Source of the DNA: a phage
DNA: 51,987 nt
Reading direction: 5' to 3' (one strand)
Sequence record: PZ715803.1
The notes below the pieces were generated by a model. It had not been told where the DNA came from, made no database searches, and saw only the letters and a program-made list of their open reading frames with translations. A program made the translations under genes and the position numbers. Position 1 is the first letter of the stretch. Every line of letters begins with the position of its first letter. Below, piece after piece: positions 2,373-48,507 of the stretch.

Positions 2373-2742
2373 TAGTTGTTTTGTTTTTTCTGTTTTCTAA
2401 ACGTTCTCAGATGGCAAGAAAACAAATCTGACACGTAAGTTAATGATTAACATGTGTTATTTTTCTTGTTCCCTTGTTCTCTCAGATACGCCGGATTATA
2501 TACATACACATGAATGATGGCACATGCAGATACTCAGAAAGAAAAATCACCACAAACAACCAAAACCACAAGAAACACAGATAACAAGAAAAAACAAATA
2601 TACATACATAAATAAATAAACTATTGATTTTATATGTATATATCTATTTTATTGATTGTTTATTGCTCTTATGTTGTCTAAAATTTGCGCTAAATTTACG
2701 CCGTCTTAAATTCGATAACGCTGGAAAACAAAAAATAACAAG

Positions 2743-2784
2743 TAGCACTTTTTGCTAAACTCGGCTTGCCGGATCGTGTATAGT
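2743..2784 (+). promoter_or_regulatory. Variant copy of the 19-bp element (TAGCACTTTTTGCTAAA) followed 21 bp later by TATAGT; promoter of the lipoprotein cassette
   Basis: Same architecture as the element copies upstream of early genes; CAACAACAA leader then AGGAG RBS. Confidence 0.45.
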
Positions 2785-2815
2785 TACAGCCAACAACAAC
2801 TAAGGAGTATTGAAG

Positions 2816-3091
2816 ATGAAAAAATTAATCGCAGTTATCGCCACCGTAGCCGCCCTGACCGGATGTTCTTCTTCGCCTACTGGCAACTTCAAGGAGATCG
2901 ATTGCACGGCAAAATTTAACGTTAAAACATTCCCTGTTAACGGATTCCATGAAGTTAAAATTAATGCGGTACGCGAAAACAGATTCAGCCAAAAGCAATA
3001 CAGGTTGAGCGTTGACAATAAAGAAGTTAAATTTATCAACCGTTGGCAAGATGAAAGAAAATTCATTGATTTGAGGTGCAAAAATGGCTGA
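2816..3091 (+). CDS. Outer-membrane lipoprotein, candidate Cor/Llp-like superinfection-exclusion protein
   Basis: Signal peptide with lipobox LTGC; AGGAG RBS; ORF-track start at 2810 is a TTG, ATG at 2816 preferred. Confidence 0.8.
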   Translation: MKKLIAVIATVAALTGCSSSPTGNFKEIDCTAKFNVKTFPVNGFHEVKINAVRENRFSQKQYRLSVDNKEVKFINRWQDERKFIDLRCKNG

Positions 3092-3362
3092 ATATGGGTA
3101 TGCAATATATGATGAGCAAGGTAGAAATGTTACTGGCCTTTTAACTCCAGTTTTTTTCTTGGATAAATTTACTCAATCATCCGGCAGTAAGACCTACTCA
3201 AACAGGCCTCCAGGTAAGTCTTTGAAAGCAATATATGTTGGAATGAATTCGTGGCGAGGAGGCGATCCAGGCGCTCCAAAGTTGGGTGTAAGTGGTGATA
3301 CCGTTACATGGAGTGGACTTTCTGGATCTGACTCAAGATATATATATACTTTTTGGGGGTAA
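3084..3362 (+). CDS. Hypothetical protein
   Basis: 92-aa ORF with GAGGTG RBS; start overlaps lipoprotein stop. Confidence 0.55.
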   Translation: MAEYGYAIYDEQGRNVTGLLTPVFFLDKFTQSSGSKTYSNRPPGKSLKAIYVGMNSWRGGDPGAPKLGVSGDTVTWSGLSGSDSRYIYTFWG

Positions 3363-3364
3363 TA

Positions 3365-3979
3365 ATGTACGGGATGAGCATAAAAAAACCAGACGGTTCA
3401 TTGTGGTTAAGTCCAGATTTCACTCCTGTTAACCTTATAGATAAAGGGAAAATATCAGCAAGAACAGGAACCGTTTTTAATACTTCTATACCAATAAATA
3501 GACCGTGCTTCTTTTTTGTAAGGTTAACATCAAAATCATACATAGCATTTACTCAATTTAATAATGGTGGGAAGCACGCAATAAAGATAGAAAAGTCCGA
3601 CAATCAAGGTGAGGTATTTGTTTATGCTTTTAGCAATATGGTTACTCCTCCTGGTAGTCACGGAATAGCTTTTTATAATGCTAATGGTGAGATGGTTTAT
3701 CATGGAAAGATGAAGCCTTTGGATGCAAAACTTGTATCTGTAAGCGGGATCACTTTTGACGTTAACTTGGGATACCCTTGCGCAATCATGCCATCACTAA
3801 CAGCTTTAAACTCTGTGCGTAATCCGTCTTTAGGTGGATTCATGATATTTGAGTCTCAAGCTGCCGCGTATGGCAACGGGGTATATTCTTTATCTAGGCA
3901 GGTTGCGCAAACTCCTGGTCCTGTTGGTATTTACACGGCATCATCTGTTTTGGTTATAAATTCATCGCACTATGATTAA
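3365..3979 (+). CDS. Hypothetical protein
   Basis: 205-aa ORF; ATG at 3365 after GGGGG; followed by a strong terminator. Confidence 0.6.
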   Translation: MYGMSIKKPDGSLWLSPDFTPVNLIDKGKISARTGTVFNTSIPINRPCFFFVRLTSKSYIAFTQFNNGGKHAIKIEKSDNQGEVFVYAFSNMVTPPGSHGIAFYNANGEMVYHGKMKPLDAKLVSVSGITFDVNLGYPCAIMPSLTALNSVRNPSLGGFMIFESQAAAYGNGVYSLSRQVAQTPGPVGIYTASSVLVINSSHYD

Positions 3980-3986
3980 AATTAAA

Positions 3987-4009
3987 GGGGGCCATGCCCC
4001 CTTTTTTTT
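3987..4009. terminator. Bidirectional intrinsic terminator (GGGGGCCATGCCCCC plus T8) between the plus-strand cassette and the J-like gene
   Basis: Perfect hairpin flanked by A-run and T-run. Confidence 0.7.
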
Positions 4010-7586: not shown

Positions 7587-7641
7587 GACTTTTAACCTTT
7601 TGTGCTGTTTCTTGGTTTGAACATTATAAAGGCACAAAAAA

Positions 7642-7658: not shown

Positions 7659-7665
7659 ATTTTTT

Positions 7666-9792: not shown

Positions 9793-9797
9793 TTAAA

Positions 9798-12872: not shown

Positions 12873-13506
12873 TATGTTTTGTTTGAATGAATCATTTCTA
12901 GCGCCTTTTGTTCCATGATGCGCAAATCATTTAGCGCCATCTCCCGATCCTCAATCTTGTAAATGTCAAAAAGCATAGGCAAAACGTTATAGTCGAACCC
13001 ATACACACTGCCGCTAGTCGATCTCCATTGCGTTTGCATTGCGCAAAACAGATCCCAAGATTGAAACATTGATTCATCAAAAATTACCTCCGGCGGCTCC
13101 TCCCCTTCGTAGTCTGAACGGGATAGGCCGACGGCCTCTAGTTGTGCGTCAGTTGGCGGCTTGAGGTAAAACAGGTAAACCGCCCGCTTTAGTTTTTTAC
13201 CCGCTGCCCCGCAAGTGCTTTCATATAATGACCAGTCAGCGATAATGACGCAGAAGGGTAATAATCCAGCAATTTAGCAACGTTTTCCTCGTTAAATTCA
13301 TCTTCCAGATCCCAACCGGAAGCAAGAAAGGTGATCATTTCTACGTCGCTCATCGGCTTTTCTGCCGTGTATCGTTCGTGAATCTCGCTTGCCTTCTTGT
13401 GGCGCACGGTAAAAACAATAACTTGCTCATCACCATTTGGAAGCACGAAAGAAACAGGTAGCTTAAAATCAGGCAGTGGGCCTAACGTTAGTTTCATCTT
13501 TGCCAT
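12872..13506 (-). CDS. Tail assembly chaperone G-T fusion made by programmed -1 frameshift at about 13192-13198
   Basis: Slippery heptamer A AAA AAC in register immediately before the G stop; -1 frame stays open for 106 codons into ORF 12872..13069. Confidence 0.6.
13189..13506 (-). CDS. Tail assembly chaperone (lambda G-like, zero-frame product)
   Basis: 105 aa between major tail and tape measure genes; ends at slippery site. Confidence 0.75.
   Translation of the reverse strand: MAKMKLTLGPLPDFKLPVSFVLPNGDEQVIVFTVRHKKASEIHERYTAEKPMSDVEMITFLASGWDLEDEFNEENVAKLLDYYPSASLSLTGHYMKALAGQRVKN
13192..13198 (-). other. Slippery heptamer AAAAAAC (X XXY YYZ) for -1 ribosomal frameshift
   Basis: Zero-frame codons GTA AAA AAC TAA read directly from the minus strand. 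Confidence 0.6.
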
Positions 13507-13520: not shown

Positions 13521-13539
13521 ATAGCACTTTTTGTTAAAA
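13521..13539 (+). promoter_or_regulatory. 19-bp element copy (ATAGCACTTTTTGTTAAAA), antisense to the late operon; abuts the RBS of the G chaperone gene
   Basis: Exact consensus; followed on plus strand by TTGATT repeats and TAGATT. Confidence 0.5.
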
Positions 13540-13583
13540 GTGGAATTGATTTATTTGATAGATTGATTTTACAGGAATGAAAA

Positions 13584-13602
13584 AAGGGGCGCAACGCCCC
13601 TT
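13584..13602 (-). terminator. Intrinsic terminator (AAGGGGCGCAACGCCCCTT plus T6) after the major tail gene
   Basis: Strong hairpin and T-run on minus strand. Confidence 0.6.
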
Positions 13603-13605
13603 GTT

Positions 13606-16255: not shown

Positions 16256-17227
16256 TTACACAGCTTTTTTCAAGCCAGTAATAAGCACCATCGTAAACGG
16301 ACGATAAATCGTAAGGCCAGTACACTTGGAAGTGCAAGGAACCTTGAAATGTAGGTCTTTTGGCTGCGCCGGAAGCATGTTAAACGCTTCTGGAATCTCA
16401 ATGCTCATGTTCATTGGATCTTTTTCGTAAACCAAGCAACCTTTCGTACCTTTGCCGTCAATATCCTCAAGCTCTGCAATAGAGTCGATAGTGATACCGC
16501 CGTTTTGCTTCTGGAAGTATTCCAGATAACTTTCAGTGGTATTTTCCATTCGAACCGTCAGGACTTTGCGCATGGACGGCGGGATCAGGATGTTGGTCGC
16601 GCGGTGCTGACCTTTGGTTACTTCCTCGATCGTTTCGATTGCGGCCTCCAGTTCATCGCTTGCCACTTCCGGGAACTTGGTATTGCCGTCATTGCTCATC
16701 CAGCCTTTAGAAACAATTTTCGTAAGGTTAGGGTGATCGAAAACGGAAACGATCTTATGAGGCTTGGAACCTTTGAACACCAGGAAGTTAATCAACTGAT
16801 CATGCGCATTTTGCGCAGCGTTAGCCTTGCGAGTTGACAGGCTCTTGCCAGTTCGCTGACCTGCTTTAATCTCATCAATGGAGATCAGATAAGCGTTACC
16901 CAGGCGGAACACTTTGCCAAACTCAGAAGTCATCAACGCGTCCACAGTCGGCAGATCATCGGTGTAGTCGGCGATAATTTTCGCGTAGCCAACCTTATCA
17001 AAAGTCTGATATTCGAAAGTCTTGTCAGTATCAGAAAGCTCGTTTGTTACAGGGAATACGCGAAGCGCGGAACCTGCCGGATATTCTTTCTCGTATGCGG
17101 TTGAGCGGATCTTGTGTAGCTCTTGAGCGGTCCAAATACCCATATCAGAAGCATCACCCTTAACGCCCTGAACCTGTAAATGATTTGCTACAATAGTAGC
17201 ATCTAATTCATCGTATTTTTTAGCCAT
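16256..17227 (-). CDS. Major capsid protein
   Basis: 323 aa from MAKKYDEL; position after scaffold and decoration-like genes. Confidence 0.75.
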   Translation of the reverse strand: MAKKYDELDATIVANHLQVQGVKGDASDMGIWTAQELHKIRSTAYEKEYPAGSALRVFPVTNELSDTDKTFEYQTFDKVGYAKIIADYTDDLPTVDALMTSEFGKVFRLGNAYLISIDEIKAGQRTGKSLSTRKANAAQNAHDQLINFLVFKGSKPHKIVSVFDHPNLTKIVSKGWMSNDGNTKFPEVASDELEAAIETIEEVTKGQHRATNILIPPSMRKVLTVRMENTTESYLEYFQKQNGGITIDSIAELEDIDGKGTKGCLVYEKDPMNMSIEIPEAFNMLPAQPKDLHFKVPCTSKCTGLTIYRPFTMVLITGLKKAV

Positions 17228-17244
17228 TTTGTTTCCTCCATAAA

Positions 17245-17266
17245 AGGCCGCTAAATGTAACGGCCT
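17245..17266 (-). other. Hairpin AGGCCG..CGGCCT between the element copy and the capsid RBS
   Basis: Perfect 6-bp stem, followed by TTTTATGGAGG on minus strand. Confidence 0.4.
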
Positions 17267-17271
17267 AGATG

Positions 17272-17290
17272 ATAGCACTTTTTGTTAAAC
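17272..17290 (+). promoter_or_regulatory. 19-bp element copy (ATAGCACTTTTTGTTAAAC), antisense orientation upstream of the major capsid gene
   Basis: 18/19 match to consensus. Confidence 0.5.
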
Positions 17291-17315
17291 GTGCAATGTT
17301 TTTTTATGCTATTAG

Positions 17316-21885: not shown

Positions 21886-21912
21886 GATTATATAACTTTT
21901 TAGCAATTAGTG

Positions 21913-26053: not shown

Positions 26054-26110
26054 TGCGCTTTCCTCTGTTTCGCTTCAATAAGGGCACTTTACCAAATGCC
26101 CTTGCGGAAG

Positions 26111-26129
26111 TTTTAACAAAAAGTGCTAT
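26111..26129 (-). promoter_or_regulatory. 19-bp element copy, then 22 bp, then TAAAGT; promoter module for 25841..26053 and downstream genes
   Basis: Exact consensus on minus strand abutting the stop codon of 26129..26416. Confidence 0.55.
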
Positions 26130-27375: not shown

Positions 27376-27445
27376 TGTGATTTCCTCTTGATTGTTGATG
27401 TGAGCATTATAGCGGGGCCGATAACCCCGCGTTTAGCAATTCGTG

Positions 27446-28876: not shown

Positions 28877-28932
28877 GATTTAATCCTCGTTTGTTGTTGA
28901 TGGGCTTACTATACCGCAAGCCCGTTGAGATG

Positions 28933-28951
28933 TTTTAACAAAAAGTGCTAT
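28933..28951 (-). promoter_or_regulatory. 19-bp element copy, then 22 bp containing a hairpin, then TATAGT
   Basis: Exact consensus; last base overlaps the phosphatase stop codon. Confidence 0.55.
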
Positions 28952-30192: not shown

Positions 30193-30246
30193 CGTTTTAT
30201 CTCCTTCGTTGAAAGTGAGGCCATTATACCTGGCCCCACATTTGAG

Positions 30247-30265
30247 TTTTAACAAAAAGTGCTAT
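30247..30265 (-). promoter_or_regulatory. 19-bp element copy, then 21 bp, then TATAAT
   Basis: Exact consensus element and consensus -10 hexamer. Confidence 0.6.
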
Positions 30266-30490: not shown

Positions 30491-31384
30491 TCAAATCTTC
30501 ACCTTCCACTTAACCATCGTTCCGCGCTTGATGCTGATCTCACCCGCAACAGTCCGGTTTTTAGTGCCGCCGTAGTGAAGCAGGAGAATAACAACATCAT
30601 CATGAATCTCGATCGTCTTTGGTGTAGCCGTTAATTCATACCATGTGCCGTCATCAAGCCGGACTCCTTTTAGCGTGGCTGCAACTGGCATATCTTCAAT
30701 CGCGCCCTGCGTTACGATTTCTTGATAGGCAAAGGCGCTCTTATCAATACGCCAGCCTCCAGGCGCTTTCATTTCGGCAGCCGCTTTGTGGATCTCCTCG
30801 CCAATGATTTTTTGAATTGACGTCTTTCCGCCGCCGAATGGAGTTTCTCCAAACAAGTGTTTTGTAATGTCTTCCACGTAGTACACTTTATCCTCTTCGT
30901 TGTGCGGATTGAATTTGTTGTGACCGTTGACAAAGAAATCAACTTTCAACTCTGATTTCGTGCCATCGCTATAAACGCCATTGTCGCGCGATGTGTAGCG
31001 AATCGTTGACTTACCAGTCGTGTGGAACGTGATCGGATACTTGATATTATCCACGCTTAAGCACCACAGCTTTTTGTAGTCGCAGGTTTTCATGTGGACC
31101 ATCGGAATCTCTGCGCGTTCCGGTGAGCGCACTGGTAACACCTGGCCCTTATATGGCTTGTAGTGCAAACATGTGTAGCCTGGCATTGCATAGCCATAGT
31201 CTTTAAGGGCGTGGTAGTGCGTATTGTGTGCATCAATAAAGTGTTCAATCTCCATTGTTGATGGGCTTAGTTTGTCGCTATTCATATCAACCTTATGGCA
31301 TGTTTTTTCATCGGTAAAAATGTAATGACCAATGCCGCGAGATTCGAAGGTGATCGGGAATTTAATGTCAGCAAGTTTTAACAT
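30491..31384 (-). CDS. Hypothetical protein with internal tandem duplication
   Basis: 297 aa; repeated IK(F/Y)PITF..G module at residues about 7 and 115. Confidence 0.75.
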   Translation of the reverse strand: MLKLADIKFPITFESRGIGHYIFTDEKTCHKVDMNSDKLSPSTMEIEHFIDAHNTHYHALKDYGYAMPGYTCLHYKPYKGQVLPVRSPERAEIPMVHMKTCDYKKLWCLSVDNIKYPITFHTTGKSTIRYTSRDNGVYSDGTKSELKVDFFVNGHNKFNPHNEEDKVYYVEDITKHLFGETPFGGGKTSIQKIIGEEIHKAAAEMKAPGGWRIDKSAFAYQEIVTQGAIEDMPVAATLKGVRLDDGTWYELTATPKTIEIHDDVVILLLHYGGTKNRTVAGEISIKRGTMVKWKVKI

Positions 31385-31463
31385 GGTGCTTTCTCCTGAT
31401 TGGTTTTGTGGGCGACGCCGTGCCGCCCTATGTGATTTATTATGCCTGGTTATCGCTTTCGAG

Positions 31464-31482
31464 TTTTAACAAAAAGTGCTAT
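31464..31482 (-). promoter_or_regulatory. 19-bp element copy, then 22 bp, then CATAAT
   Basis: Exact consensus; directly downstream of the stop of 31483..31668. Confidence 0.55.
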
Positions 31483-31869: not shown

Positions 31870-31926
31870 TTTTGTTTCCTCAATCTCGTTTCGATGAGGC
31901 TATTATGCCAGGCTTTGCGCCTGGCG

Positions 31927-31945
31927 TTTTAACAAAAAGTGCTAT
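31927..31945 (-). promoter_or_regulatory. 19-bp element copy, then 22 bp containing hairpin GCCAGGC..GCCTGGC, then CATAAT
   Basis: Exact consensus; stop codon of the upstream lipoprotein gene embedded in the element. Confidence 0.55.
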
Positions 31946-33250: not shown

Positions 33251-33280
33251 TTCTATCGCAATCCTGGCGCTAACCGTCAA

Positions 33281-33299
33281 ATAGCACTTTTTGTTAAAA
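33281..33299 (+). promoter_or_regulatory. 19-bp element copy, then 22 bp, then TACATT; promoter of the rightward early operon
   Basis: Exact consensus; CATCGAAAC leader and GGAGA RBS follow. Confidence 0.55.
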
Positions 33300-33358
33300 C
33301 TCAGGCCACCTGATCGGGTACATTGCACACATCGAAACGAACCGCTCAGGAGATAGCA

Positions 33359-34584: not shown

Positions 34585-34603
34585 ATAGCACTTTTTGTTA
34601 AAA
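34585..34603 (+). promoter_or_regulatory. 19-bp element copy, then 22 bp, then TACATT
   Basis: Exact consensus immediately after the stop codon of 34321..34584. Confidence 0.55.
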
Positions 34604-34661
34604 CTCAATCCTCGTATTCCTGTACATTACACGCATCGACAACGAATGCGAGGATTTGAAA

Positions 34662-34814
34662 ATGGTTACTCTGATTACCTGGGAACACGAAAACAGCCAG
34701 CCGGAAGCGCGCGAATTTGAAACCGTAGCCGCTTGTTACAACCTGGCGAAAAATGGCGGATTCTACAAGGCGCAAATCGTTAACGAGTTTGGAGTTGTTG
34801 ACTATGAGTTCTAA
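34662..34814 (+). CDS. Small hypothetical protein (50 aa, below ORF-track cutoff)
   Basis: ATG with GAGGAT RBS right after the element promoter; overlaps next start. Confidence 0.45.
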   Translation: MVTLITWEHENSQPEAREFETVAACYNLAKNGGFYKAQIVNEFGVVDYEF

Positions 34815-35094
34815 GTTTTACAGCTACACCGACACAGTTGATTTTGAGGGGATACAATTGCCCCTCCCAAATATATACCGCTATATCACTCGTGACGAGC
34901 GCGGATTTATTGAAGCCTGGCGCGCTAAGCCAGTGCGGGATCTTGAATTTGGCGGCTTCCGTTCGCTTGAAGGTGAATTGCCGATCTGCTTTGGTCATCA
35001 AAGCGGTGAAAGCCTTCCTGTTGTTGCGCGTAAGTATCGCCGCCACAAGATCACAAGGCAACTTATCTCTTTAACTGGAAAAGTTGTTGAATAG
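34804..35094 (+). CDS. Hypothetical protein
   Basis: ATG 34804 with GGAG RBS. Confidence 0.55.
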   Translation: MSSKFYSYTDTVDFEGIQLPLPNIYRYITRDERGFIEAWRAKPVRDLEFGGFRSLEGELPICFGHQSGESLPVVARKYRRHKITRQLISLTGKVVE

Positions 35095-35109
35095 CACTTT
35101 TTGTTAAAA
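35091..35109 (+). promoter_or_regulatory. 19-bp element copy, then 22 bp, then TGgTATATT (extended -10-like)
   Basis: Exact consensus; stop codon TAG of the upstream gene inside the element. Confidence 0.55.
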
Positions 35110-35165
35110 ACGATGTGCGCCTGAATGGTATATTACACCCATCGACAACAAGAGAGGATTTAAAG

Positions 35166-36351: not shown

Positions 36352-36572
36352 GTCAAGACGGATTTTTTGAACGCCTTCAAATGGCAGAAGATGCCGGACT
36401 AAATAAAGAGGCTGCGCTTGAAGTGGCATATAAAATTAAGCCTCTTGATGAGGCTTTAGGTGATATGGATATGGATCTTGAATCAAGCGCAATATTTGCA
36501 GATCCCACTATGATTGTTAATGATTGTGGATGCGATTTCGATCCTGGTTGTGCGCGCTGTTTTCCGTTTTGA
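36348..36572 (+). CDS. Hypothetical acidic protein with Cys-rich C-terminus
   Basis: 74 aa; C-terminal CGCDFDPGCARC. Confidence 0.6.
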   Translation: MSQDGFFERLQMAEDAGLNKEAALEVAYKIKPLDEALGDMDMDLESSAIFADPTMIVNDCGCDFDPGCARCFPF

Positions 36573-36582
36573 GGTAATTACG

Positions 36583-37293
36583 ATGTATAAAGGTTTAATA
36601 TTCTCCCTATTTGATGGATCTGGCAAAGCCGTTAAAGATTGGGCTGATAATGGCTATAAGTGCATTTGCTTTAATGCTGACGGTGGCGATCACGGTGATT
36701 ACCAGTCAGTGCGCATACAGCATGAGAATATCGAATACGTTAACGTCTGGATTGATGAAAGATTTTACCACCGCGCGCGCTGGGAGGAATGGGGCATTCC
36801 TGACTTTATTATGGCATTTCCGCCGTGCACCGACCTTGCAAATAGCGGATCTCGCCATTGGGCCAAAAAACGCCTTGAGAATCCATCGTTCCAGGATGAG
36901 GCCGCCGACACTTGCAGAATCGCGGCTGATATAGCTGATTATTTCGGTGTTCCTTACATGATCGAAAATCCGGTTGGCAAGTTGTCAACGTTATGGCGAA
37001 AGCCTGATTATACGTTCCATCCGTGCGATTACGCTGGCTATCTGCCGGAAGATGATAAACATCCCGACTTCCCTGATATTATTCCGGCACGGGATCGCTA
37101 TTTTAAGAAAACGTGCCTCTGGACTGGCAACGGCTTTGTTATTCCTCCGCGCGCTTTAATCCTGCCGAAAGAGGAAGACAAAGATAATCCAGGCTGGGCC
37201 AAAACTGGCGGTAAGTCATCGCGCACAAAGATGATCCGCTCCCTCACTCCGCGCGGATTTGCTCGCGCCGTCTTTGAGTCAAACTCAAAATAG
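36583..37293 (+). CDS. Putative DNA (cytosine-5)-methyltransferase-like protein
   Basis: FDGSGK (motif I-like), FPPC (catalytic Pro-Cys, motif IV-like), ENPVG (motif VI-like); ATG 36583 with GAGGT RBS. Confidence 0.5.
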   Translation: MYKGLIFSLFDGSGKAVKDWADNGYKCICFNADGGDHGDYQSVRIQHENIEYVNVWIDERFYHRARWEEWGIPDFIMAFPPCTDLANSGSRHWAKKRLENPSFQDEAADTCRIAADIADYFGVPYMIENPVGKLSTLWRKPDYTFHPCDYAGYLPEDDKHPDFPDIIPARDRYFKKTCLWTGNGFVIPPRALILPKEEDKDNPGWAKTGGKSSRTKMIRSLTPRGFARAVFESNSK

Positions 37294-37308
37294 CACTTTT
37301 TGTTAAAA
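37290..37308 (+). promoter_or_regulatory. 19-bp element copy, then 22 bp containing hairpin GCCAGG..CCTGGC, then CATAAT
   Basis: Exact consensus with stop codon TAG of the MTase gene embedded. Confidence 0.55.
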
Positions 37309-37362
37309 GCCAGGTGTAAAAACCTGGCATAATCACATCGAACAAACAAAGGAGATCTGATC

Positions 37363-37749: not shown

Positions 37750-37967
37750 TAAACAGTGAAAACCGTTACAAAGTAACGCATTCTACCACAAAGACTTTCA
37801 AGCCTGGCGATATAGTCAGGCCCATCAAAAAAACGGCGGTAGGTTGGCTGATTGGTTTTTCATATCATAAGGCGCTTTACTTTACGTTTAAGGATGGGAT
37901 TACAGGAGAATGCTACAGCGACCGCCAGCCTGATCGACTTCTGGTTGCAATAGAGCGGATCAAATAG
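37746..37967 (+). CDS. Hypothetical protein
   Basis: 73 aa; overlapping start. Confidence 0.6.
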   Translation: MINSENRYKVTHSTTKTFKPGDIVRPIKKTAVGWLIGFSYHKALYFTFKDGITGECYSDRQPDRLLVAIERIK

Positions 37968-37982
37968 CACTTTTTGACAAAA
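37964..37982 (+). promoter_or_regulatory. Element variant with TTGACA (ATAGCACTTTTTGACAAAA), then 22 bp, then TAAAAT
   Basis: Single T-to-C change creates a consensus -35-like hexamer. Confidence 0.5.
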
Positions 37983-38035
37983 CGGGGTAGTATTGGGCCG
38001 TTAAAATTTACGGCCCACAAAGGAGAAGCTAACGA

Positions 38036-39616
38036 ATGTTTTCATTAGAAACGAACAAATTAACTCCACAGCAAATAATCGCTATGGCTGAAAGCCAGAA
38101 CCTTTCACCAGTTCGCGTATCAATTCAGGCTAACGGCTATCGCCAGTCGTCCAGCTTTTGGGGCGACGTGAAGGATGTAAATAGCGGTCACGATCGCTAC
38201 CCCGTTATTTCTCTTGGTAATGATATTGATGTTGTCGGCAAGCTATCACGCAGCATTGCGCGATCCGTTCAATTCCCTGAATCATCGGCTTACATGCACT
38301 TTATCGGCTGCATTTCTGCCGCTATGCTTGGACGCTTTACGGTTGACTATCACGGAACAGATCAGCCGACTGCGCTTTACGTCGTTACAAGCCAGCCGCC
38401 GTCAACTGGTAAATCTGCGATCAACAGCATGGCTATTGCTCCGATGATTGCGGAAGTTGAGAAGATCAACGAGCAACGCCGCAAGGAAAGAAAGAAAATA
38501 CAGGCAAAGTTGGCAGGTCTTGCAAAGGAGATGAAAAGCGAAAGGTCCGGCGCTGATATGGAATCTCTATACCAGGAAAAAGAGGATCTGGAGGAGAAGC
38601 TGGAAAAGATGTGTGATATAACTTTCCCTGTTTCAGATACAACTCCAGAAGGCTTGGCGAAAATCAACAACAAGCAAGGTAACTTTGCCGTAATATCTGA
38701 CGAAGCAACAAGTATTAACAGTCTGTTAGGCTTGACCTATGCAAATAGCGAAAGGAAGACTAACAGTGAGCTAGTGCTTAAGGCGTGGGATAATGGTCAC
38801 GTATCAATTGCCCGTGCTAATGCCGACAATAATATGAGTTTTCGCGCGCTTGGATGTATGAGCGTTATAGCACAGGATGAAACGATAAGCGGAATCATGG
38901 ACGCTGGATCGCGCGGTATCGGTGTGAGTGAGCGCTTTTTGTTGGTCCGCGAAGAATCATTCTTAGGCCGTCGCTCATTCATTGATGAAAATGGTGATTC
39001 TACCTATGAGGCGGTGGATTCTGAATTGAAAGCCCAATATTATCAATTGGTGCATAACATCATGAGCGAATCAAATATATCGCTGAAAATAAGCCGCTCA
39101 GCTATGCGAGTGCTCAACATTGCTCGCCAGGATATGGAACCGCATCTTGCAGACGGCGGAAAGTATTCTCATACAATGTTACGCGGTGCGCTGGGTAAAA
39201 TGGATAAACAGGTGATCAGGCTTGCTTCCGTCCTGCATGTTATCCGCAACTGGTTTAATCCTGCTGGATACCCGCAGAAGTCGAAAGAGATCGACGTGGA
39301 AACAATGCAAGAGGCGCTGATCATGTTTCAGGAATTGAGCAAAACATACATTAGCGCCGCCAATGCTTCTGGTTATGCTGGTGATGATGCTGAAATGGGC
39401 AAATTGATTGAATTGATCACTAGACACGGCAAGGCTAATAAAGGGATTCTGAATATTCGCGCCCTGTACGAATCAGCGAGAAAGGTAAAACCTTTCGTTG
39501 GTCAAGCTGGCGTAATGAAGAGGATAGAAGGGCACTTGCTGCCAATGCTGGAAGAAAGAAATTATGTTTGTGTTATTAATGGTGTTATTTTTGTCAATCC
39601 AATACTGCTGGGATGA
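38036..39616 (+). CDS. P-loop NTPase with Walker A/B (putative replication or recombination ATPase)
   Basis: 526 aa; Walker A QPPSTGKS, Walker B-like AVISDEA. Confidence 0.8.
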   Translation: MFSLETNKLTPQQIIAMAESQNLSPVRVSIQANGYRQSSSFWGDVKDVNSGHDRYPVISLGNDIDVVGKLSRSIARSVQFPESSAYMHFIGCISAAMLGRFTVDYHGTDQPTALYVVTSQPPSTGKSAINSMAIAPMIAEVEKINEQRRKERKKIQAKLAGLAKEMKSERSGADMESLYQEKEDLEEKLEKMCDITFPVSDTTPEGLAKINNKQGNFAVISDEATSINSLLGLTYANSERKTNSELVLKAWDNGHVSIARANADNNMSFRALGCMSVIAQDETISGIMDAGSRGIGVSERFLLVREESFLGRRSFIDENGDSTYEAVDSELKAQYYQLVHNIMSESNISLKISRSAMRVLNIARQDMEPHLADGGKYSHTMLRGALGKMDKQVIRLASVLHVIRNWFNPAGYPQKSKEIDVETMQEALIMFQELSKTYISAANASGYAGDDAEMGKLIELITRHGKANKGILNIRALYESARKVKPFVGQAGVMKRIEGHLLPMLEERNYVCVINGVIFVNPILLG

Positions 39617-40125: not shown

Positions 40126-40144
40126 ATAGCATTTTTTGTTAAAA
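40126..40144 (+). promoter_or_regulatory. Element variant (ATAGCATTTTTTGTTAAAA), then 22 bp hairpin, then TATATT; left arm of a 45-bp inverted repeat with the copy at 43369-43387
   Basis: About 30 bp identical to the reverse complement of 43343-43387. Confidence 0.55.
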
Positions 40145-40205
40145 CGCCCGGCCTAGTGTCGGGTATATTTGTTTCATCGAAACGAAACAACCAAAAGGTA
40201 AAATT

Positions 40206-40430
40206 ATGTCCAGCAAGTTTTTAGTAGTTCGCGTATATAATCATGACAACGGATCTTCTGCTGAAATCCCGACAATTTACGACAGGGATTTTGGATGGAG
40301 TGAGCAATCGGCGGTTGAAAATGAGCGCAAGATTGCAGAAATGTACGGCGACACTTGCAGCATTGAAGTAAGGCAGTACGACGAATCGAACAAGCCAACA
40401 AACGAAACTCATATGTGGCCCGACGCATAA
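40206..40430 (+). CDS. Hypothetical protein
   Basis: 74 aa; single-gene unit between element promoter and terminator. Confidence 0.6.
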   Translation: MSSKFLVVRVYNHDNGSSAEIPTIYDRDFGWSEQSAVENERKIAEMYGDTCSIEVRQYDESNKPTNETHMWPDA

Positions 40431-42805: not shown

Positions 42806-42899
42806 TCTGCTACCTATCTCATTACTATATGGTACATAACTGTAACAGCGATGATAACGGGTAACGGTAGAACAAACAAGCGCCACATGATAACTATCC

Positions 42900-43311: not shown

Positions 43312-43368
43312 TTTTATTTCCTCATGTTTGCTTCGTTGAAATAATTATGCCCGACACTAGGCCGGGCG

Positions 43369-43387
43369 TTTTAACAAAAAGTGCTAT
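43369..43387 (-). promoter_or_regulatory. 19-bp element copy, then hairpin, then CATAAT; right arm of the 45-bp inverted repeat; candidate promoter of the lysis-containing operon
   Basis: Exact consensus; stop codon of 43387..43644 abuts the element. Confidence 0.55.
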
Positions 43388-43644: not shown

Positions 43645-43648
43645 CGTG

Positions 43649-44374
43649 TTAGCTCCGTTTGCGCGCGCGGCGTTCGGTTACAGAAGGGCAAATATCGCTG
43701 ATCTTAACGTATCGCGTTTTCTGCTCCTCGCCTTCTTTAAGTTTTCGCATGACAAAAATCACGCTCCCCTTGTTGTTGCCCTGTACAGGCTCGCCAGTCA
43801 ATCCAGACACAAAGGCGATTCTTCCGGTGCGGGAGTATTCTACTCCACCCTCTTCGTAAACCTCACCAGTGATCCAGATGATTTCAGCCGCGTTTTTCTG
43901 CGCCTCATAAAACCATGCTGTAGAGTTGTCGGCTGGCAACAAAACATCAATTTGGTTGTTGTGCTCCATTTGCTCAATTGCTTTCTTGATAAATGGAGTT
44001 GGGTTGCTGTACGGCGGGTTAAGCCATACGTGCTTGTTGCTACCCCACCAACGCTTTAAGCAGTTTGTTTCCTTGCTATAGAACTTCTCGCAAACTGCGT
44101 TTTCCTGGCTTGCTGCCGCGTCGAGATCGTATTCACCAAATTCTGATTCCATCCACTCCACAATCTCTTGAGGCGTGCTCCACATATCGCGCACAACGTC
44201 CGGCGTGGTGCTTCCAGCGTATCGGTTTCCGCTTACCTTATAATATTGATTTGGCTTTACTGCCTGGTAATGGCCTCCAGTTGCAAGAGCATTCCCTATA
44301 AATGTTTCTCTCTCCAACTGCTCAAAGCTAACGAATGCGTCATTGGTGTCTTTATCTAAAATATCTTTAGCCAT
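43649..44374 (-). CDS. dam: DNA N6-adenine methyltransferase (Dam-like)
   Basis: NPPY catalytic motif (HVWLNPPYSN), 241 aa. Confidence 0.85.
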   Translation of the reverse strand: MAKDILDKDTNDAFVSFEQLERETFIGNALATGGHYQAVKPNQYYKVSGNRYAGSTTPDVVRDMWSTPQEIVEWMESEFGEYDLDAAASQENAVCEKFYSKETNCLKRWWGSNKHVWLNPPYSNPTPFIKKAIEQMEHNNQIDVLLPADNSTAWFYEAQKNAAEIIWITGEVYEEGGVEYSRTGRIAFVSGLTGEPVQGNNKGSVIFVMRKLKEGEEQKTRYVKISDICPSVTERRARKRS

Positions 44375-44438
44375 TTCATTTCTCCGCTATTAAAAGCTAT
44401 CTCGTGTTATTGAATTATGGCGCAATCCATCGCGCCAG

Positions 44439-44457
44439 TTTTAACAAAAAGTGCTAT
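44439..44457 (-). promoter_or_regulatory. 19-bp element copy, then 22 bp, then CATAAT; promoter module upstream of dam
   Basis: Exact consensus immediately after the VRR-NUC stop. Confidence 0.55.
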
Positions 44458-44873
44458 TTAAGCATGTATTCAATAGCCAACTTAAACTGATTAAATCCGT
44501 AGGCGACCGCAGCGAATCCTCCTAAGCTGCGAACTCGACGCAAAAAAGCCTTTTGTTCATCGCTGACTGGTGATGCTTTACCCTTGCCTGATTTATTCAC
44601 TCGTTTGATCTCAATCGCTGCAAATGGGTATTTCCCGTTTAAACCAATCAGGATGATGAAATCGCTTACTCCCTTAACCAAGCCGGACTGCTGATCAATC
44701 ATCGCCGTTGCTTTAGACTTCTCATTCTCGTTTACCGTATGCCACGCCAGCAAATAAGGATGAGCATAAGTCAACCACTGAAAACTATCTATCTGGTGAT
44801 TAACTTCCCTTCTCGTGTCGGTTGGATCTCTTTCGTAAAACTCAAGATAATCGCCTTTATCAGTTATAGCCAT
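44454..44873 (-). CDS. VRR-NUC domain nuclease (PD-(D/E)XK)
   Basis: 139 aa; D...E-x-K segment (SDFIILIG...AIEIKR). Confidence 0.7.
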   Translation of the reverse strand: MAITDKGDYLEFYERDPTDTRREVNHQIDSFQWLTYAHPYLLAWHTVNENEKSKATAMIDQQSGLVKGVSDFIILIGLNGKYPFAAIEIKRVNKSGKGKASPVSDEQKAFLRRVRSLGGFAAVAYGFNQFKLAIEYMLK

Positions 44874-46870
44874 TAAACAAACTCCCGTTTTGCAATGTTA
44901 TCCTCACCTTTGCCGTTCTTGCGATGCGTTACGCGTACAGGCGGCATGATGTGATGAGCGTATGACATTATTTTACGCGCATTTCTATAGCTCGCCACCA
45001 TACCAGCAATCTTGCGATCCGGTATGTGCTGCAATGCTATTTTTCTCCATATCGTACGGCAAATGTTGCTTTCTGACTCAGGGAAAAATCTTTCGTATGC
45101 CTTGAACGTGTCGCCGTTTGCCTCAAGCTCATAGCAAAAAACAATTCCTTTCTGGTTTTTCGTCATATCAACGCGGAAAGATTTAACGTTGCACCAATCG
45201 TTTTTGGTGTAGTGCTTGCCGCTTAACTTCTCGTTAGGATCGACAAGAGAAATATCGCAACAACGGCATACTCTCGCCACTACGTCGTTTTTTGTTCCGC
45301 AACCGCGCTTGATTATCTTTTTCGTTCTCGGATCTACCTGGTCCTCGCAAATTCTGTAAGTCCAAAAATGCTCGCATCTCTTCCCGTTATCGTCTACGTG
45401 CATACATCGGCGAGCGTAAAAGCTGTTTAGCGTTCCACATATCGGGCAAGTCTTAGGCTCTTTCCCGTTTGTAAACCTCTTTTGGAATTGCGCTTGCTCA
45501 AGGATTGGATCGAAATACAAATCCCCTAACTCATCCATAGTACCAGCAAAATCCAATACAAGATGGTCTTTTTTCTTGAATCCCTGCTCAATGTGCCATT
45601 GCTTAAGCAGTCGCATACCGCGCCCCAAAAGCTGGATAAGCAATGTTAGAGATCCTATCTTTCTCAGTATTACAGAAGTATCCCAAAACGGAACGTTAAC
45701 GCCAGTGGTAAGCGCCTGTACCTGGAAGATGTATTTTACTTTTCCCTCGTATGCCTCCCTCAGCCACTCTTTACGCTGATTGTCTCCAGTCTTGCCAGTT
45801 ATGATCCTGTATTCAACGCCTGGCGGCAGTGCGGCGGCGGCCTCCTTGCAGTGTCTTTCCCCTGCGCATGTAACTAAAACTCCGTTCCTGTCTTTGCATA
45901 TCTCATGGACTTTAGCCATGATTTTCTGTGTCATTGTTGCGTCTTGATGGATCTTTTCTTCCATCTTGCGCAATGTTTTAGCGTCAAAGTCTGAAACGCC
46001 ATCCTCGCTACTGGCTTCGAACTCTGAAAGGTCATACCCCAGGTCGCCTACGTCGCCGAAATTTGTTGGCACTACAGAACCGAATTTGATTAAGTAGTTT
46101 GTGTCTATGTTAGTCACCTGCTCACGCCAGAATCCCTTTTTGTTCTTATCTTCAACCAGTATTGGAACCACGCCGCGAAATTCAGATCCAGTCATACCGA
46201 ATATTCGCAATTCGTGCCCGTATGCCTCGCGACACCTGCGCATCATTTCCATGATTATTACCGTGTACTGTGTGCGTCCTGTTCCGAACATTGGATCGCC
46301 ATTGGAATCAAATTGCTGTTCTTCTCCAATCAGTACAGGCAAATCCTTCTTAGTGGTCATCTGCTGGTAAGATTCATTATTTTCTATCGCGTCGGCGAGA
46401 TCCTCCCAATCCACCTGGTGACATTCATCAATACCGATAACGTGCGGAACATAATCACCTAACGACTTAAACAATCCGTTTACCACAGTGCCCTCAGAAC
46501 CGACTACGATCGGAAAGTATGCGCTTTTTGTTTTCAGTCCGGCGCAATAGATTGAGTTTGGCACGCCAAGATTGCTGATCTCTTCTGAATCCTGATCAAC
46601 AATTTCAGCCTGACGAGCAAGCACCATCATTTTCAATCCCATTTTGCGGCATTGCGCCGCAACCATCGCAAACATCAATGTTTTGCCAGCCGACACAGAA
46701 GCCTTAACAAAGAAAGGATGCTCATAGTTTTTCATGCGCTTTGCGATCTCGGCATACGCAACGCACTGATAAGGATAAGGCACTATATTGCCAACAGTGA
46801 ATCGCTCTTGGATGCTTTTTATTACTGCCTCGCCTAACGCTGATATTTGTTTTTCGATATTTGGAATCAT
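44873..46870 (-). CDS. SF2 DExH-box helicase with C-terminal Cys-rich zinc-ribbon region
   Basis: Walker A SAGKT, DECH box, multiple CxxC pairs in the C-terminal 200 aa. Confidence 0.85.
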   Translation of the reverse strand: MIPNIEKQISALGEAVIKSIQERFTVGNIVPYPYQCVAYAEIAKRMKNYEHPFFVKASVSAGKTLMFAMVAAQCRKMGLKMMVLARQAEIVDQDSEEISNLGVPNSIYCAGLKTKSAYFPIVVGSEGTVVNGLFKSLGDYVPHVIGIDECHQVDWEDLADAIENNESYQQMTTKKDLPVLIGEEQQFDSNGDPMFGTGRTQYTVIIMEMMRRCREAYGHELRIFGMTGSEFRGVVPILVEDKNKKGFWREQVTNIDTNYLIKFGSVVPTNFGDVGDLGYDLSEFEASSEDGVSDFDAKTLRKMEEKIHQDATMTQKIMAKVHEICKDRNGVLVTCAGERHCKEAAAALPPGVEYRIITGKTGDNQRKEWLREAYEGKVKYIFQVQALTTGVNVPFWDTSVILRKIGSLTLLIQLLGRGMRLLKQWHIEQGFKKKDHLVLDFAGTMDELGDLYFDPILEQAQFQKRFTNGKEPKTCPICGTLNSFYARRCMHVDDNGKRCEHFWTYRICEDQVDPRTKKIIKRGCGTKNDVVARVCRCCDISLVDPNEKLSGKHYTKNDWCNVKSFRVDMTKNQKGIVFCYELEANGDTFKAYERFFPESESNICRTIWRKIALQHIPDRKIAGMVASYRNARKIMSYAHHIMPPVRVTHRKNGKGEDNIAKREFV

Positions 46871-46926
46871 CTTAAACCTTTAAAAAATGCCATTTGGAGT
46901 ATATAATAGACTCATTACAATAAACT

Positions 46927-46945
46927 GTTTTAACAAAAAATGCTA
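46927..46945 (-). promoter_or_regulatory. Element variant (ATAGCATTTTTTGTTAAAA), then 22 bp, then TATTAT; promoter of the helicase operon; also abuts the RBS of the divergent gene at 46958
   Basis: 18/19 match; located in the divergent intergenic region. Confidence 0.5.
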
Positions 46946-46957
46946 TGAGGTGACTAG

Positions 46958-47434
46958 ATGAAAGATGCACGAATTGCAGTGTCTACGGGTGAGATCGACA
47001 AGCGCACTATTAACGGTAACAACGGAACGCGACGAGGTAAAGACAAAAAGCCACGAAAACACCGAACCGGATTTCTTATCCTGCGAGATGAGGTAAAAGC
47101 AAGCCTGAAATCTCGCCTTGACATTCTGATCGAGTATTACGGCGGCGTTCCTGCTATGGCTCGACGTCTGCGCGTATCTCAGCAAGTCGTTAACCAGTGG
47201 CGAAAGCGTGGTATGATTTCAGCCGCTGGAGCACAAAAGGTGCATAACGACTACAAATATAATGGATGCAAAGGATACCGCGCCTCGTTTTGTCGTCCAG
47301 ATCTGCGGTTTGATTCTAACGGCAAGCCTCTTACTACCCGTTGCGACAAATACGAAATGTTGCGCGTAGTCAAAAATTCAGACTACGAACCAGGCGGACG
47401 ATTCTACAAAGGTGATAACAGCACGAATAGCTAA
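46958..47434 (+). CDS. Helix-turn-helix DNA-binding protein
   Basis: Cro/CI-like HTH segment (MARRLRVSQQVVNQWRKRG); GAGGTGA RBS. Confidence 0.65.
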   Translation: MKDARIAVSTGEIDKRTINGNNGTRRGKDKKPRKHRTGFLILRDEVKASLKSRLDILIEYYGGVPAMARRLRVSQQVVNQWRKRGMISAAGAQKVHNDYKYNGCKGYRASFCRPDLRFDSNGKPLTTRCDKYEMLRVVKNSDYEPGGRFYKGDNSTNS

Positions 47435-47441
47435 TGATAAG

Positions 47442-47476
47442 GCCCAGCGAAATGATAATATTTGCTGGGCTTTTTT
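47442..47476 (+). terminator. Intrinsic terminator (GCCCAGC...GCTGGGC plus T6)
   Basis: Stem-loop followed by TTTTTTATT. Confidence 0.65.
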
Positions 47477-47488
47477 ATTGAGGTTGCT

Positions 47489-48418
47489 ATGAATACTGAA
47501 AACTTTATGACCTATCAGAAAGAAGATGTTTTGCCATATATGAAGGGGTTATGGCGTGAAGCACTACAAAGCATTTGCGGACTGCATAGCGATGTTTTCA
47601 ACAAAAAGCATCAGCCTTGCCCACACTGCGGCGGTAAGGATCGTTTTAGATGGACTGATAAGCTAAATGAAGAGGGCGACGGCGGCGCGATCTGCAACGT
47701 GTGCGGTAACGACACGGGGATCGGTTGGTTAATGAAATTAACTGGCGAACCTTACAGCGAGGCCATCAACATTTTGGGTCGCTTCCTCGGAAAAGTGCCG
47801 CAGGATTACAGGATCAGAGCAAACAAACGCGCTTCGCGTTCTTCTGGTTACTCGTTCGGGAAACAGGCAAGTCATGAATGCTGCGAAAAAGTGATGGCAA
47901 AAACATTAAAATTCGATCGCACACCTTTAAGCGTTTATGAGGGGATATATCCGCCGGAAGGTTGTCATTATGATTGCGGCGTCAAGGATGGTCGATACAT
48001 TCACGCGCTACCTTGTCACCTGGTGCATGATGATGGGCTGGATGATGAAATGTGTAACGTGCTTTTCATTGATGAGGATGGAAAGGATTGGTTTTTAGCT
48101 CGCGACTACACGCGCGGGTCTGTTGTTAAAACAGGTAGCACAGATAAGACGATCTATTTGTGCCTTGATTGGGTTGATTCCCAGCATGTTCATTTATCAA
48201 CTGGTCAAGAGGTGTGGGCCTGCTTTACTCCTTCAAATCTTGAAATGGTTGCGCATAGATATAAAGGAGAAAGAAGAATGCGCGTAGTCTGCCGGAAGGA
48301 TGATCGTGATGTGATAATCGCGGCAGAGGAAAGAGGTCTTGACATAATGATGCCTGTTAACGATAATTTTAAACAGGGCGTAGAAAGAAAACTCTACAAG
48401 CCCGAATCACTGCTATAA
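47489..48418 (+). CDS. Putative DNA primase (zinc-ribbon CxxC...CxxC N-terminus)
   Basis: CPHCGG...CNVCG zinc-binding motif near N-terminus; ATG 47489 with GAGG RBS. Confidence 0.6.
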   Translation: MNTENFMTYQKEDVLPYMKGLWREALQSICGLHSDVFNKKHQPCPHCGGKDRFRWTDKLNEEGDGGAICNVCGNDTGIGWLMKLTGEPYSEAINILGRFLGKVPQDYRIRANKRASRSSGYSFGKQASHECCEKVMAKTLKFDRTPLSVYEGIYPPEGCHYDCGVKDGRYIHALPCHLVHDDGLDDEMCNVLFIDEDGKDWFLARDYTRGSVVKTGSTDKTIYLCLDWVDSQHVHLSTGQEVWACFTPSNLEMVAHRYKGERRMRVVCRKDDRDVIIAAEERGLDIMMPVNDNFKQGVERKLYKPESLL

Positions 48419-48435
48419 AACTCCGCTAGTATTAC

Positions 48436-48459
48436 CCCGCTTATGCGGGGTTTTTTTTT
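48436..48459 (+). terminator. Intrinsic terminator (CCCCGCTTATGCGGGG plus T9)
   Basis: Perfect hairpin and long T-run; hairpin sequence resembles the one at nt 6-23. Confidence 0.7.
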
Positions 48460-48490
48460 GCATTTGAAAATGCTATTATCTGCATTGTCA

Positions 48491-48507
48491 TTAGCAAAAA
48501 GTGCTAT
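48491..48507 (-). promoter_or_regulatory. Element variant (TTAGCAAAAAGTGCTAT on plus), inverted relative to and abutting the RBS of the tail fibre gene
   Basis: Core GTGCTATTTA shared with copies at 21892 and 27428. Confidence 0.45.

Follow-up and report, generated by a model that had tools for sequence, protein, structure and literature searches.

The 51,987-bp sequence PZ715803.1, referred to as a whole as the window, belongs to a T1-like siphophage of E. coli in the Drexlerviridae, subfamily Tempevirinae, whose closest relatives (vB_EcoS-95, tonijn and tiwna) are about 98% identical to it. A 19-bp element is repeated at gene boundaries throughout this genome. With one additional base it reads as a 20-bp asymmetric marbox, ATAGCAC-nnW-TTG-Y-TAAA-AC, and the copies oriented with transcription are probably class II marbox promoters served by the host activators Rob, MarA or SoxS. 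The match to the marbox, the promoter geometry, the promoter hallmarks and their conservation in the phage family were read directly from the sequences.

The proposed mechanism is as follows. Each co-oriented copy would be the activator site of a class II marbox-type sigma70 promoter. The box would be bound, over the usual place of the -35 hexamer, by MarA, SoxS or Rob (RamA in Klebsiella), which are monomeric AraC-family proteins with two helix-turn-helix (HTH) motifs. The bound activator would recruit host RNA polymerase through the C-terminal domain of its alpha subunit (alpha-CTD) and region 4 of sigma70, as has been solved for SoxS at micF (PMC9638938). Transcription would start at a conserved C(-1)A(+1), seven nucleotides (nt) past the -10 hexamer, and a frequent G at -14 would partly offset the missing -35. 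In unstressed cells the activator would most likely be Rob, joined by MarA, SoxS or RamA when the host meets antibiotics, oxidative stress or bile. The module would also hold the stop codon of the upstream gene, a GC hairpin and a CA-rich leader.

The 20-bp marbox/soxbox consensus, AYNGCACNNWNNRYYAAAYN, was defined without reference to phages (PMC2064960), and the phage element also fits the MarA logo GCAHWWWWTGYYAAA (PMC6900184), with which the TG at box positions 12-13 agrees. A search of the window with the first 18 positions of the consensus returned 17 exact matches, compared to 0.07 expected. It also recovered degenerate copies, such as the one at 27430 on the minus strand (ATAGCACGAATTGCTAAACG), which agrees at 14 of the 14 specified positions; most boxes in the window fit 13 or 14 of them. 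A weight matrix made solely from the 33 MarA sites identified by chromatin immunoprecipitation sequencing (ChIP-seq) in PMC5684230 gave 22 matches in the window at 14 bits or more, compared to 1.0 in shuffled sequences. Most phage cores scored 16-20 bits, which is the level of the top seven or so among the 33 chromosomal sites. Cores in phage T1 were identical to the E. coli pheP, yneO and grxA/ybjC MarA sites, and these sites (15-bp cores) were bound by MarA in ChIP-seq and rated '+++' in vitro by gel shift (PMC5684230). The phage box and the box of E. coli micF are identical at 15 of 20 positions.

Within the element, GCAC would be recognition element 1 and YTAAA, a helical turn away, recognition element 2. 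GCAC and TAAA were nearly invariant in the promoter logo, a conservation pattern that is partly forced by the selection of sites. The positions that varied among copies and phages were 8-10 (T/G, T/A and T/A), 14 (C or T) and 19-20, which are N, W and Y positions of the consensus. A pair of unlike conserved blocks at a distance of 11 bp fits a monomer that has two different HTH motifs and not a dimer of single-HTH proteins.

The 19-mer ATAGCACTTTTTGTTAAAA, allowing up to three mismatches, was found 19 times in the window, 12 of these exactly, while 0.06 matches were expected from 100 dinucleotide shuffles. All 18 copies listed in an earlier note on this DNA were recovered within 1-2 bp of the positions it gave. 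It had also listed degenerate relatives, of which those at 21897, 27430 and 7589 are genuine box variants; the match at about 26921 (ATGCTACTTTTTCTTTATAG) was unconvincing and was rejected as a copy. Alignment of the copies gave a common order: the end of the upstream open reading frame (ORF), the element, a variable GC-rich stretch, a -10-like hexamer, the leader CATCGAAAC or CATCAACAAC, a ribosome-binding site (RBS) and ATG. The same note had the element always co-oriented with transcription in the early and middle blocks. All 17 promoter-type copies face the next downstream ORF on the same strand; the copies at 13521(+), 17272(+) and 48488(-), each next to a late gene on the opposite strand, are exceptions to co-orientation. 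It had also placed the element at the stop codon of the upstream gene; a same-strand ORF ends inside or directly adjoining the element in 14 of the 17 promoter copies, and at 35091, 37290, 37964 and 40126 the stop codon is the TAG of the box itself. The reported 22 bp from TTGTTA to the hexamer, equivalent to an 18-bp gap after the 20-bp box, was present in 15 of the 17 promoters, and the distance was 21 bp (a 17-bp gap) in the two at 2742 and 30246. Both the TTGACA in the copy at 37964 and the conserved leader, C(-1) A(+1) TCGAAAC, proved genuine.

The spacing between box and -10 was equally constant in related genomes. Of the 76 boxes in the window, T1, Rtp and KP36, 63 have an 18-bp gap, 7 a 17-bp gap and 3 a 19-bp gap. 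Class II spacing was checked directly on the E. coli micF, sodA, ybjC and fumC sequences. In micF the box ACAGCACTGAATGTCAAAAC is followed after exactly 18 bp by TAGAAT and 7 nt further on by the annotated RNA start, which puts its centre at -41.5, and the box centre is likewise -41.5 in the cryo-electron microscopy of SoxS at micF (PMC9638938). The gap to TATAAT is 18 bp in sodA, that of ybjC is 19 bp, and the -10 of fumC is ambiguous. With its 18-bp gap to the -10, the phage box has its centre near -41.5, counting from the predicted +1. Class II marbox promoters are described as having a forward box centred near -41 and a canonical -10 without a -35, the mean -35 match being reported as 1.9 (PMC10268841, PMC12052159). 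The phage promoters agree with these rules in box match, forward orientation, gap, and a sigma70 -10 without a -35.

At a 17-bp spacer the phage promoters agree with TTGACA at a mean of 1.6 of 6 positions, and no -35 was found at 16-18 bp. A standard sigma70 -35/-10 scan of the early region gave 32 sites, compared to 34.7 expected, and missed the box promoters, in which TTGYTA is 22 bp from the -10 and the canonical sigma70 -35/-10 arrangement is absent. The missing -35 and the chance-level scan bear out the view of the earlier note that these are not ordinary -35/-10 promoters. The 22-bp distance is explained by class II spacing with TTGTTA in recognition element 2 of the marbox, and for this reason TTGTTA was rejected as a displaced -35. 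The logo of 65 promoters had G at -14 in 55, C at -1 in 39 and A at +1 in 51. It also had the -10 consensus TATAaT with A2 and T6 conserved, a 6-nt discriminator and the leader TCGAAAC.

The closest known likeness is to the E. coli class II promoters micF, sodA and ybjC-nfsA, which have a forward 20-bp AYNGCACNNWNNRYYAAAYN box centred at about -41.5, an 18-bp gap (19 bp in ybjC), no -35 and a sigma70 -10. Unlike these, the phage has about 17 copies in 52 kb, accounting for most of its early and middle promoters, and its boxes are nearly identical, near the optimum, and fused to a stop codon, a GC hairpin and a CA-rich leader. There is also a resemblance to the middle promoters of phage T4, which use host sigma70 polymerase with a good -10 and no -35, in whose place stands a conserved asymmetric box that a monomeric activator binds. 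The T4 box is the MotA box at -30, read by the phage protein MotA with AsiA, whereas the box described here is centred at about -41.5 and fits the site of a host activator.

The repeat itself is not new, since it was described in the 2024 re-annotation of phage TLS, a member of the same subfamily as vB_EcoS-95. That genome has 18 intergenic 21-nt repeats with the consensus aaATAGCACnnnTTGnTAAAA, oriented with transcription and located tens of nt 5' of start codons, and its authors placed the same repeat also in T1, Rtp and Rogue1 (PMC11447400). The repeat of the window falls within the TLS-type definition and is the same element, alike in consensus, intergenic placement and direction of transcription; the TLS copies also have the 18-bp gap. 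For TLS the count of sigma70-like promoters was only three, neither a polymerase nor a sigma gene was reported, and the function of the repeat was left as an open question, with stoperators, enhancer-binding sites and UP elements as guesses (PMC11447400). The account differs from the one given here in that it assigns no function and reports neither the fixed distance to a -10 nor the match to the marbox. A link between T1-like phages or the Drexlerviridae and the marbox, MarA, SoxS or Rob was not found in the searchable literature, which did not extend to subscription journals.

In related phages, where the earlier note had seen a way to check its proposal, sites agreeing at 13 or more of the 14 positions numbered 20 in T1 (Tunavirus), 16 in Rtp, 13 in Klebsiella phage KP36 and 21 in TLS, with fewer than 1 in shuffled sequences. 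These four phages represent four other genera, and the layout is common to all of them. In T7 there were 3 weak consensus matches. A pattern scan of IMG/VR, in which one match was returned per locus, gave contigs of about 50 kb that look like T1-like phages, and most of the larger contigs had single matches resembling coincidences within coding sequences. One 140-kb contig, far above the size of a T1-like genome, has a well-formed box ATAGCACTTTTTGCTAAAGA (5031-5100) with TATATT 19 bp downstream and an RBS (locus L013), which hints that the module occurs outside the Drexlerviridae. The labelled hosts were all Enterobacterales except for some doubtful Campylobacter labels. There are 20 such 'Campylobacter phage' records (MG065681, MG065641, MG065638 and about 17 others); examples were about 81% identical to T1-like coliphages, and the three that were examined are unannotated.

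The GC hairpins that had been noticed between the box and the -10 are also real. Folding of the 35-nt stretch between box and +1 gave a mean minimum free energy of -10.4 kcal/mol, and in 45 of 65 promoters z was below -2 relative to shuffled sequences. Two registers were found, one with a stem ending at about -13 and one with arms flanking the -10 hexamer, the 3' arm ending at -1. The hairpins include GNRA loops and G-U pairs, which argue for a role at the level of RNA, and since they end before +1 they would occur only in transcripts reading through from upstream. Most have no U tract; the T-tail rule for terminators held for only 2 of the spacer hairpins in the window, where the -10 region doubles as the T-rich tail. 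In the T1 record, hairpins of this kind are annotated as terminators. Judged from these features they are probably 3' stabilisers acting on RNA, or weak terminators or insulators, for read-through transcripts, and they may have been packed into a spacer that is free of sequence constraint in class II complexes. No Rfam family matched anywhere in the window.

The predicted marbox promoter modules of the window are the following.

2742..2791, plus strand: promoter module 5' of a lipoprotein-like gene starting at about 2814; box GTAGCACTTTTTGCTAAACT, 17-bp gap, -10 TATAGT 2779-2784.

26079..26129, minus strand: promoter module; box 26110-26129, -10 TAAAGT 26086-26091 inside the loop of hairpin AAGGGCA/TGCCCTT.

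27399..27449, minus strand: promoter module; box ATAGCACGAATTGCTAAACG with 14/14 consensus positions, hairpin GCGGGGT-TATCG-GCCCCGC, consensus -10 TATAAT 27406-27411.

28901..28951, minus strand: promoter module 3' of the polynucleotide kinase gene; box 28932-28951, -10 TATAGT 28908-28913 in the hairpin loop, predicted +1 at about 28901 (CATCAACAAC).

30216..30265, minus strand: promoter module; box 30246-30265, 17-bp gap, -10 TATAAT 30223-30228.

31432..31482, minus strand: promoter module for the 297-amino-acid ORF 30491..31384; box 31463-31482, -10 CATAAT 31439-31444.

31895..31945, minus strand: promoter module; box 31926-31945, hairpin CCAGGC-GCAAA-GCCTGG, -10 CATAAT 31902-31907, predicted +1 at about 31895 (CATCGAAACG).

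33281..33331, plus strand: promoter module, the first promoter in the rightward early block; box 33281-33300 ATAGCACTTTTTGTTAAAAC, 18-bp gap, -10 TACATT 33319-33324, predicted +1 A33331 (CATCGAAAC).

34585..34635, plus strand: promoter module; box 34585-34604 with the TAA of the upstream ORF directly 5' of it, -10 TACATT 34623-34628, predicted +1 at about 34635.

35091..35141, plus strand: promoter module; box 35091-35110, whose TAG (35092-35094) ends ORF 34753..35094, -10 TATATT 35129-35134, predicted +1 at about 35141.

37290..37340, plus strand: promoter module 3' of the Dcm methylase gene; box 37290-37309, whose TAG ends 36514..37293, spacer hairpin GCCAGGT-GTAAAA-ACCTGGC, -10 CATAAT 37328-37333.

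37964..38014, plus strand: promoter module 5' of the DUF3987 helicase gene 38036..39616; variant box ATAGCACTTTTTGACAAAAC, -10 TAAAAT 38002-38007 within the loop of hairpin GGGCCGT/ACGGCCC.

40126..40176, plus strand: promoter module for ORF 40206..40430; box ATAGCATTTTTTGTTAAAAC, hairpin GCCCGGC-CTAGT-GTCGGGT flagged as terminator-like, -10 TATATT 40164-40169, predicted +1 at about 40176.

43337..43387, minus strand: promoter module; box 43368-43387, hairpin GCCCGGC-CTAGT-GTCGGGC flagged as terminator-like, -10 CATAAT 43344-43349.

44407..44457, minus strand: promoter module 5' of the Dam methylase gene 43649..44374; box 44438-44457, -10 CATAAT 44414-44419.

46896..46946, minus strand: promoter module for the ATP-dependent helicase gene 44873..46870; box ATAGCATTTTTTGTTAAAAC, -10 TATTAT 46903-46908.

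47418..47468, plus strand: probable degenerate marbox promoter 5' of the primase gene 47462..48418; box ACAGCACGAATAGCTAATGA, TAATAT at an 18-bp gap within a terminator hairpin. The position of this box is kept in T1, TLS, Rtp and KP36.

Five further copies lie outside the class II layout.

7589..7608, minus strand: box variant ACAGCACAAAAGGTTAAAAG that stops 2 nt short of the tail J-like gene's ATG and supplies the Shine-Dalgarno sequence of that gene.

13521..13540, plus strand: reverse-oriented box adjoining the RBS of the tail assembly chaperone gene 13189..13506 (minus strand).

17272..17291, plus strand: reverse-oriented box just 5' of the major capsid gene 16256..17278 (minus strand), kept in T1 at 15067(-) and in TLS at 15023(-).

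21897..21916, minus strand: box located between the genes for terminase and portal; the core, GCACTAATTGCTAAA, has exactly the sequence of the E. coli yneO MarA site.

48488..48507, minus strand: reverse-oriented degenerate box ATAGCACTTTTTGCTAATGA adjoining the RBS of the tail fibre gene (48501..), kept in T1 at 34902(+) and in Rtp at 33762(+).

The variant at 7589 is not a class II promoter and is kept in T1 (25021) and TLS (24908). Nor does the box at 21897 have class II geometry: there is no -10 at 18 bp, and TATAAT at +4 is followed by a terminator. Read in its own direction, the box at 13521 has TAGATT at 18 bp and, about 10 nt later, a bidirectional terminator (13521-13612), an arrangement that recurs in T1 at 18831(-) and from which an antisense transcript of about 40 nt would be expected, facing the 3' end of the major tail gene. 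Two explanations of the reverse copies were rejected. Their reverse complement cannot serve as an extended -10 promoter of the adjoining late genes, for which the predicted starts would fall within or past the RBS, and only 14-44 nt separate these copies from start codons, which does not suit class I sites.

Proteins that might read the box were sought in the window. A local hidden Markov model, built from MarA, SoxS and Rob sequences, found no MarA/SoxS/Rob-like ORF in the six frames of the window (best E 0.38). A Pfam scan of 51 uncharacterised proteins found neither HTH_18 or HTH_AraC domains nor a homologue of MotA or AsiA; for HTH_18 and HTH_AraC, the replication and lysis enzymes and the structural module (4000-24060) were judged by the domain notes of vB_EcoS-95. 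The lack of such a phage protein, together with two unlike blocks one helical turn apart, makes host Rob, MarA or SoxS (RamA in Klebsiella) the simplest candidate readers. Rob is made constitutively and is abundant, and would for that reason be the likeliest activator in unstressed cells.

The HTH proteins that the phage does encode are a 158-amino-acid Cro/YdaS-like protein (46958..47434) and the N-terminal HTH of a metallophosphoesterase, both below the Pfam cut-offs. Both are kept in the four phages compared and are only 51-67% identical between genera, with the box unchanged; the predicted recognition helix of the Cro-like protein varies between genera. The metallophosphoesterase (41690-42886, minus strand), annotated as a DNA repair exonuclease, has its HTH at residues about 40-73, with Sigma70_r4_2 as the best Pfam match (E 0.002, below the cut-off), and this HTH is kept in T1 gp16, Rtp61 and KP36 gp63. 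A further candidate is the DUF7174 protein, encoded by the first leftward gene (32205-32666, minus strand). This gene is driven by the only perfect sigma70 promoter of the window (32698-32725, minus strand, TTGACA-N16-TATAAT), which needs no activator and is context for the box family, not a member of it. An AlphaFold model of DUF7174, with a predicted local distance difference test (pLDDT) score of 83, has three helices and a beta-hairpin in a winged-helix-like core. A fold search against the PDB found no match at E <= 0.001, and the weak matches were to winged-helix regulators. DUF7174 is a possible immediate-early regulator.

Several observations weigh against activation by the host proteins. 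The box is conserved far more tightly than the degenerate marbox needs, with positions 0 (A), 3 (A) and 11-12 (TT) nearly fixed, and position 19 is mostly A rather than Y, as it also is in micF. This excess could reflect an extra or different reader, though part of it is due to the TAG stop codon lying within the box, position 3 being the A that completes the TAG used by four upstream genes. MarA and SoxS are scarce in unstressed laboratory cells, yet T1-like phages grow very fast there, and Rob is reported to be mostly sequestered in such cells (PMC2787020). The perfect sigma70 promoter on the conserved DUF7174 gene means that a phage-made factor is possible for all promoters except the first. 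Class II activation leaves unexplained the conserved reverse copies at the RBSs of late genes and the forward copy at the tail J start, and the doubtful Campylobacter host label, if true, would speak against the need for an enterobacterial activator. The searchable literature yielded no data on binding, transcription starts or genetics for any T1-like phage.

Of the roles that the earlier note had offered, an activator site is the best reading of the element, and the preference for a phage factor was not upheld, because the element comes close to the consensus of a host marbox and has class II geometry, and because neither the six-frame search nor the Pfam scan turned up an AraC-type protein. 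It is nevertheless conceivable, if unlikely, that a phage-encoded DNA-binding protein reads the box and activates or times these promoters, the likeness to the marbox being coincidental or secondary. The tightness of the box, the reported sequestration of Rob without stress, the conservation of both HTH proteins in all four phages, and the DUF7174 protein, with its probable immediate-early expression from a perfect promoter and its weak fold matches, would all suit such a reader. But no AraC-type or two-HTH protein was found among the phage ORFs searched, the fold search for DUF7174 and the Pfam matches of the HTH proteins stayed short of their thresholds, and single-HTH candidates such as these would be expected on repeated or palindromic half-sites, not on two unlike blocks. 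The candidates also diverge between genera, including the recognition helix of the Cro-like protein, while the box is invariant, and chance would have to account at once for a match at 14 positions, for cores identical to verified MarA sites and for a gap of exactly the 18 bp of class II.

Direct reading of the element by RNA polymerase without an activator, either as an UP-like sequence or with TTGYTA as a displaced -35, and with marbox binding incidental, is more improbable still. It would make sense of the G at -14 in 55 of 65 promoters, the good -10 hexamers, the conserved Y(-1)R(+1) and the A/T-rich 3' half of the box. The literature suggests that polymerase can occupy micF and sodA without an activator, and UP elements were raised by the TLS authors (PMC11447400). 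However, sigma70 could not recognise TTGYTA and the -10 as a -35/-10 pair at a distance of 22 bp, and GCAC, which is invariant, is not rich in A/T. The usual place of an UP element is about -59 to -38, whereas this element lies at about -51 to -32. UP elements also tolerate wide variation, and here two specific blocks are fixed. On the grounds of GCAC and position the UP element suggested by the earlier note does not fit. It is very improbable that the element acts instead on elongating polymerase or on RNA, as a stoperator-like roadblock, a terminator or insulator, or a processing signal. Its orientation bias, intergenic position and overlap with stop codons point that way, as do the strongly non-random hairpins with their GNRA loops and G-U pairs, two of them terminator-like, the terminators annotated in T1, and the reverse copies in late-gene leaders. 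The analogy with the stoperators of mycobacteriophage L5 comes from the TLS authors (PMC11447400), and these are likewise many near-identical, asymmetric intergenic sites with an orientation bias. Unlike them, the box occurs in a virulent phage with no known repressor and is locked 18 bp from a -10; stoperators are repressor sites of a temperate phage that block elongation and have no fixed relation to a -10. The fixed gap, the G at -14 and C(-1)A(+1) are hallmarks of promoters, and most hairpins have no U tract. A processing signal or other role in RNA, which the earlier note had also considered, may hold for the hairpins alongside the promoter role, but it leaves the sequence of the box unexplained, whereas the marbox reading accounts for every conserved position.

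Binding of the box by the host proteins and activation in vivo would, if they occur, have wider consequences, whichever paralogue acts. It is an evenly balanced question whether the Drexlerviridae have wired nearly all of their early and middle promoters to the stress and multidrug-resistance activators MarA, SoxS, Rob and RamA of their hosts. T1-like phages have no RNA polymerase or sigma factor of their own and almost no recognisable sigma70 promoters, and the marbox reading offers a concrete mechanism for their transcription. If it is true, most transcription of a virulent phage would depend on a stress activator regulon of its host; we know of no precedent for such dependence, and none was found in the searchable literature. 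Phage expression would then rise with bile, oxidative and antibiotic stress and in clinical marR, soxR and ramR mutants that over-produce the activators, and the defence and efflux genes of the host could lose these activators by titration to hundreds of replicating genomes, each with about 20 boxes of top affinity. The Drexlerviridae, with the Klebsiella Weberviruses among them, are candidate therapeutic phages, and their promoters would be boosted in strains that are multidrug resistant because they over-express MarA, RamA or SoxS, which would have a bearing on phage-antibiotic synergy. T1-like phages also contaminate laboratory and industrial E. coli cultures, and might be weakened there by a rob marA soxS background or by decoy boxes. 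The modules would, in addition, be compact, strong and activator-tunable promoter parts.

Some neighbouring features were noted as well. At 46879-46946 the -10 of the helicase module (46903-46908, minus strand) overlaps the -10 TATAAT (46902-46907, plus strand, TTTAAA-17-TATAAT) of the HTH gene 46958..47434, the two genes being back to back. The box of this module lies in the leader of the HTH gene, and its reverse complement adjoins the RBS of that gene. The overlapping promoters of the helicase and the HTH regulator could form a mutually exclusive switch. Downstream of the box promoter at 40126, 74-amino-acid ORFs occur on both strands (40204-40430), of which the plus-strand one is annotated in vB_EcoS-95. 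Two long non-coding regions, 2315-2740 (30% GC) and 32700-33280 (38% GC), have weak collinear similarity to each other (22 bp at 91% and 65 bp at 75%), and the second has three TGATTA(C) repeats at about 33215-33255. These regions may be origin, pac or control regions.

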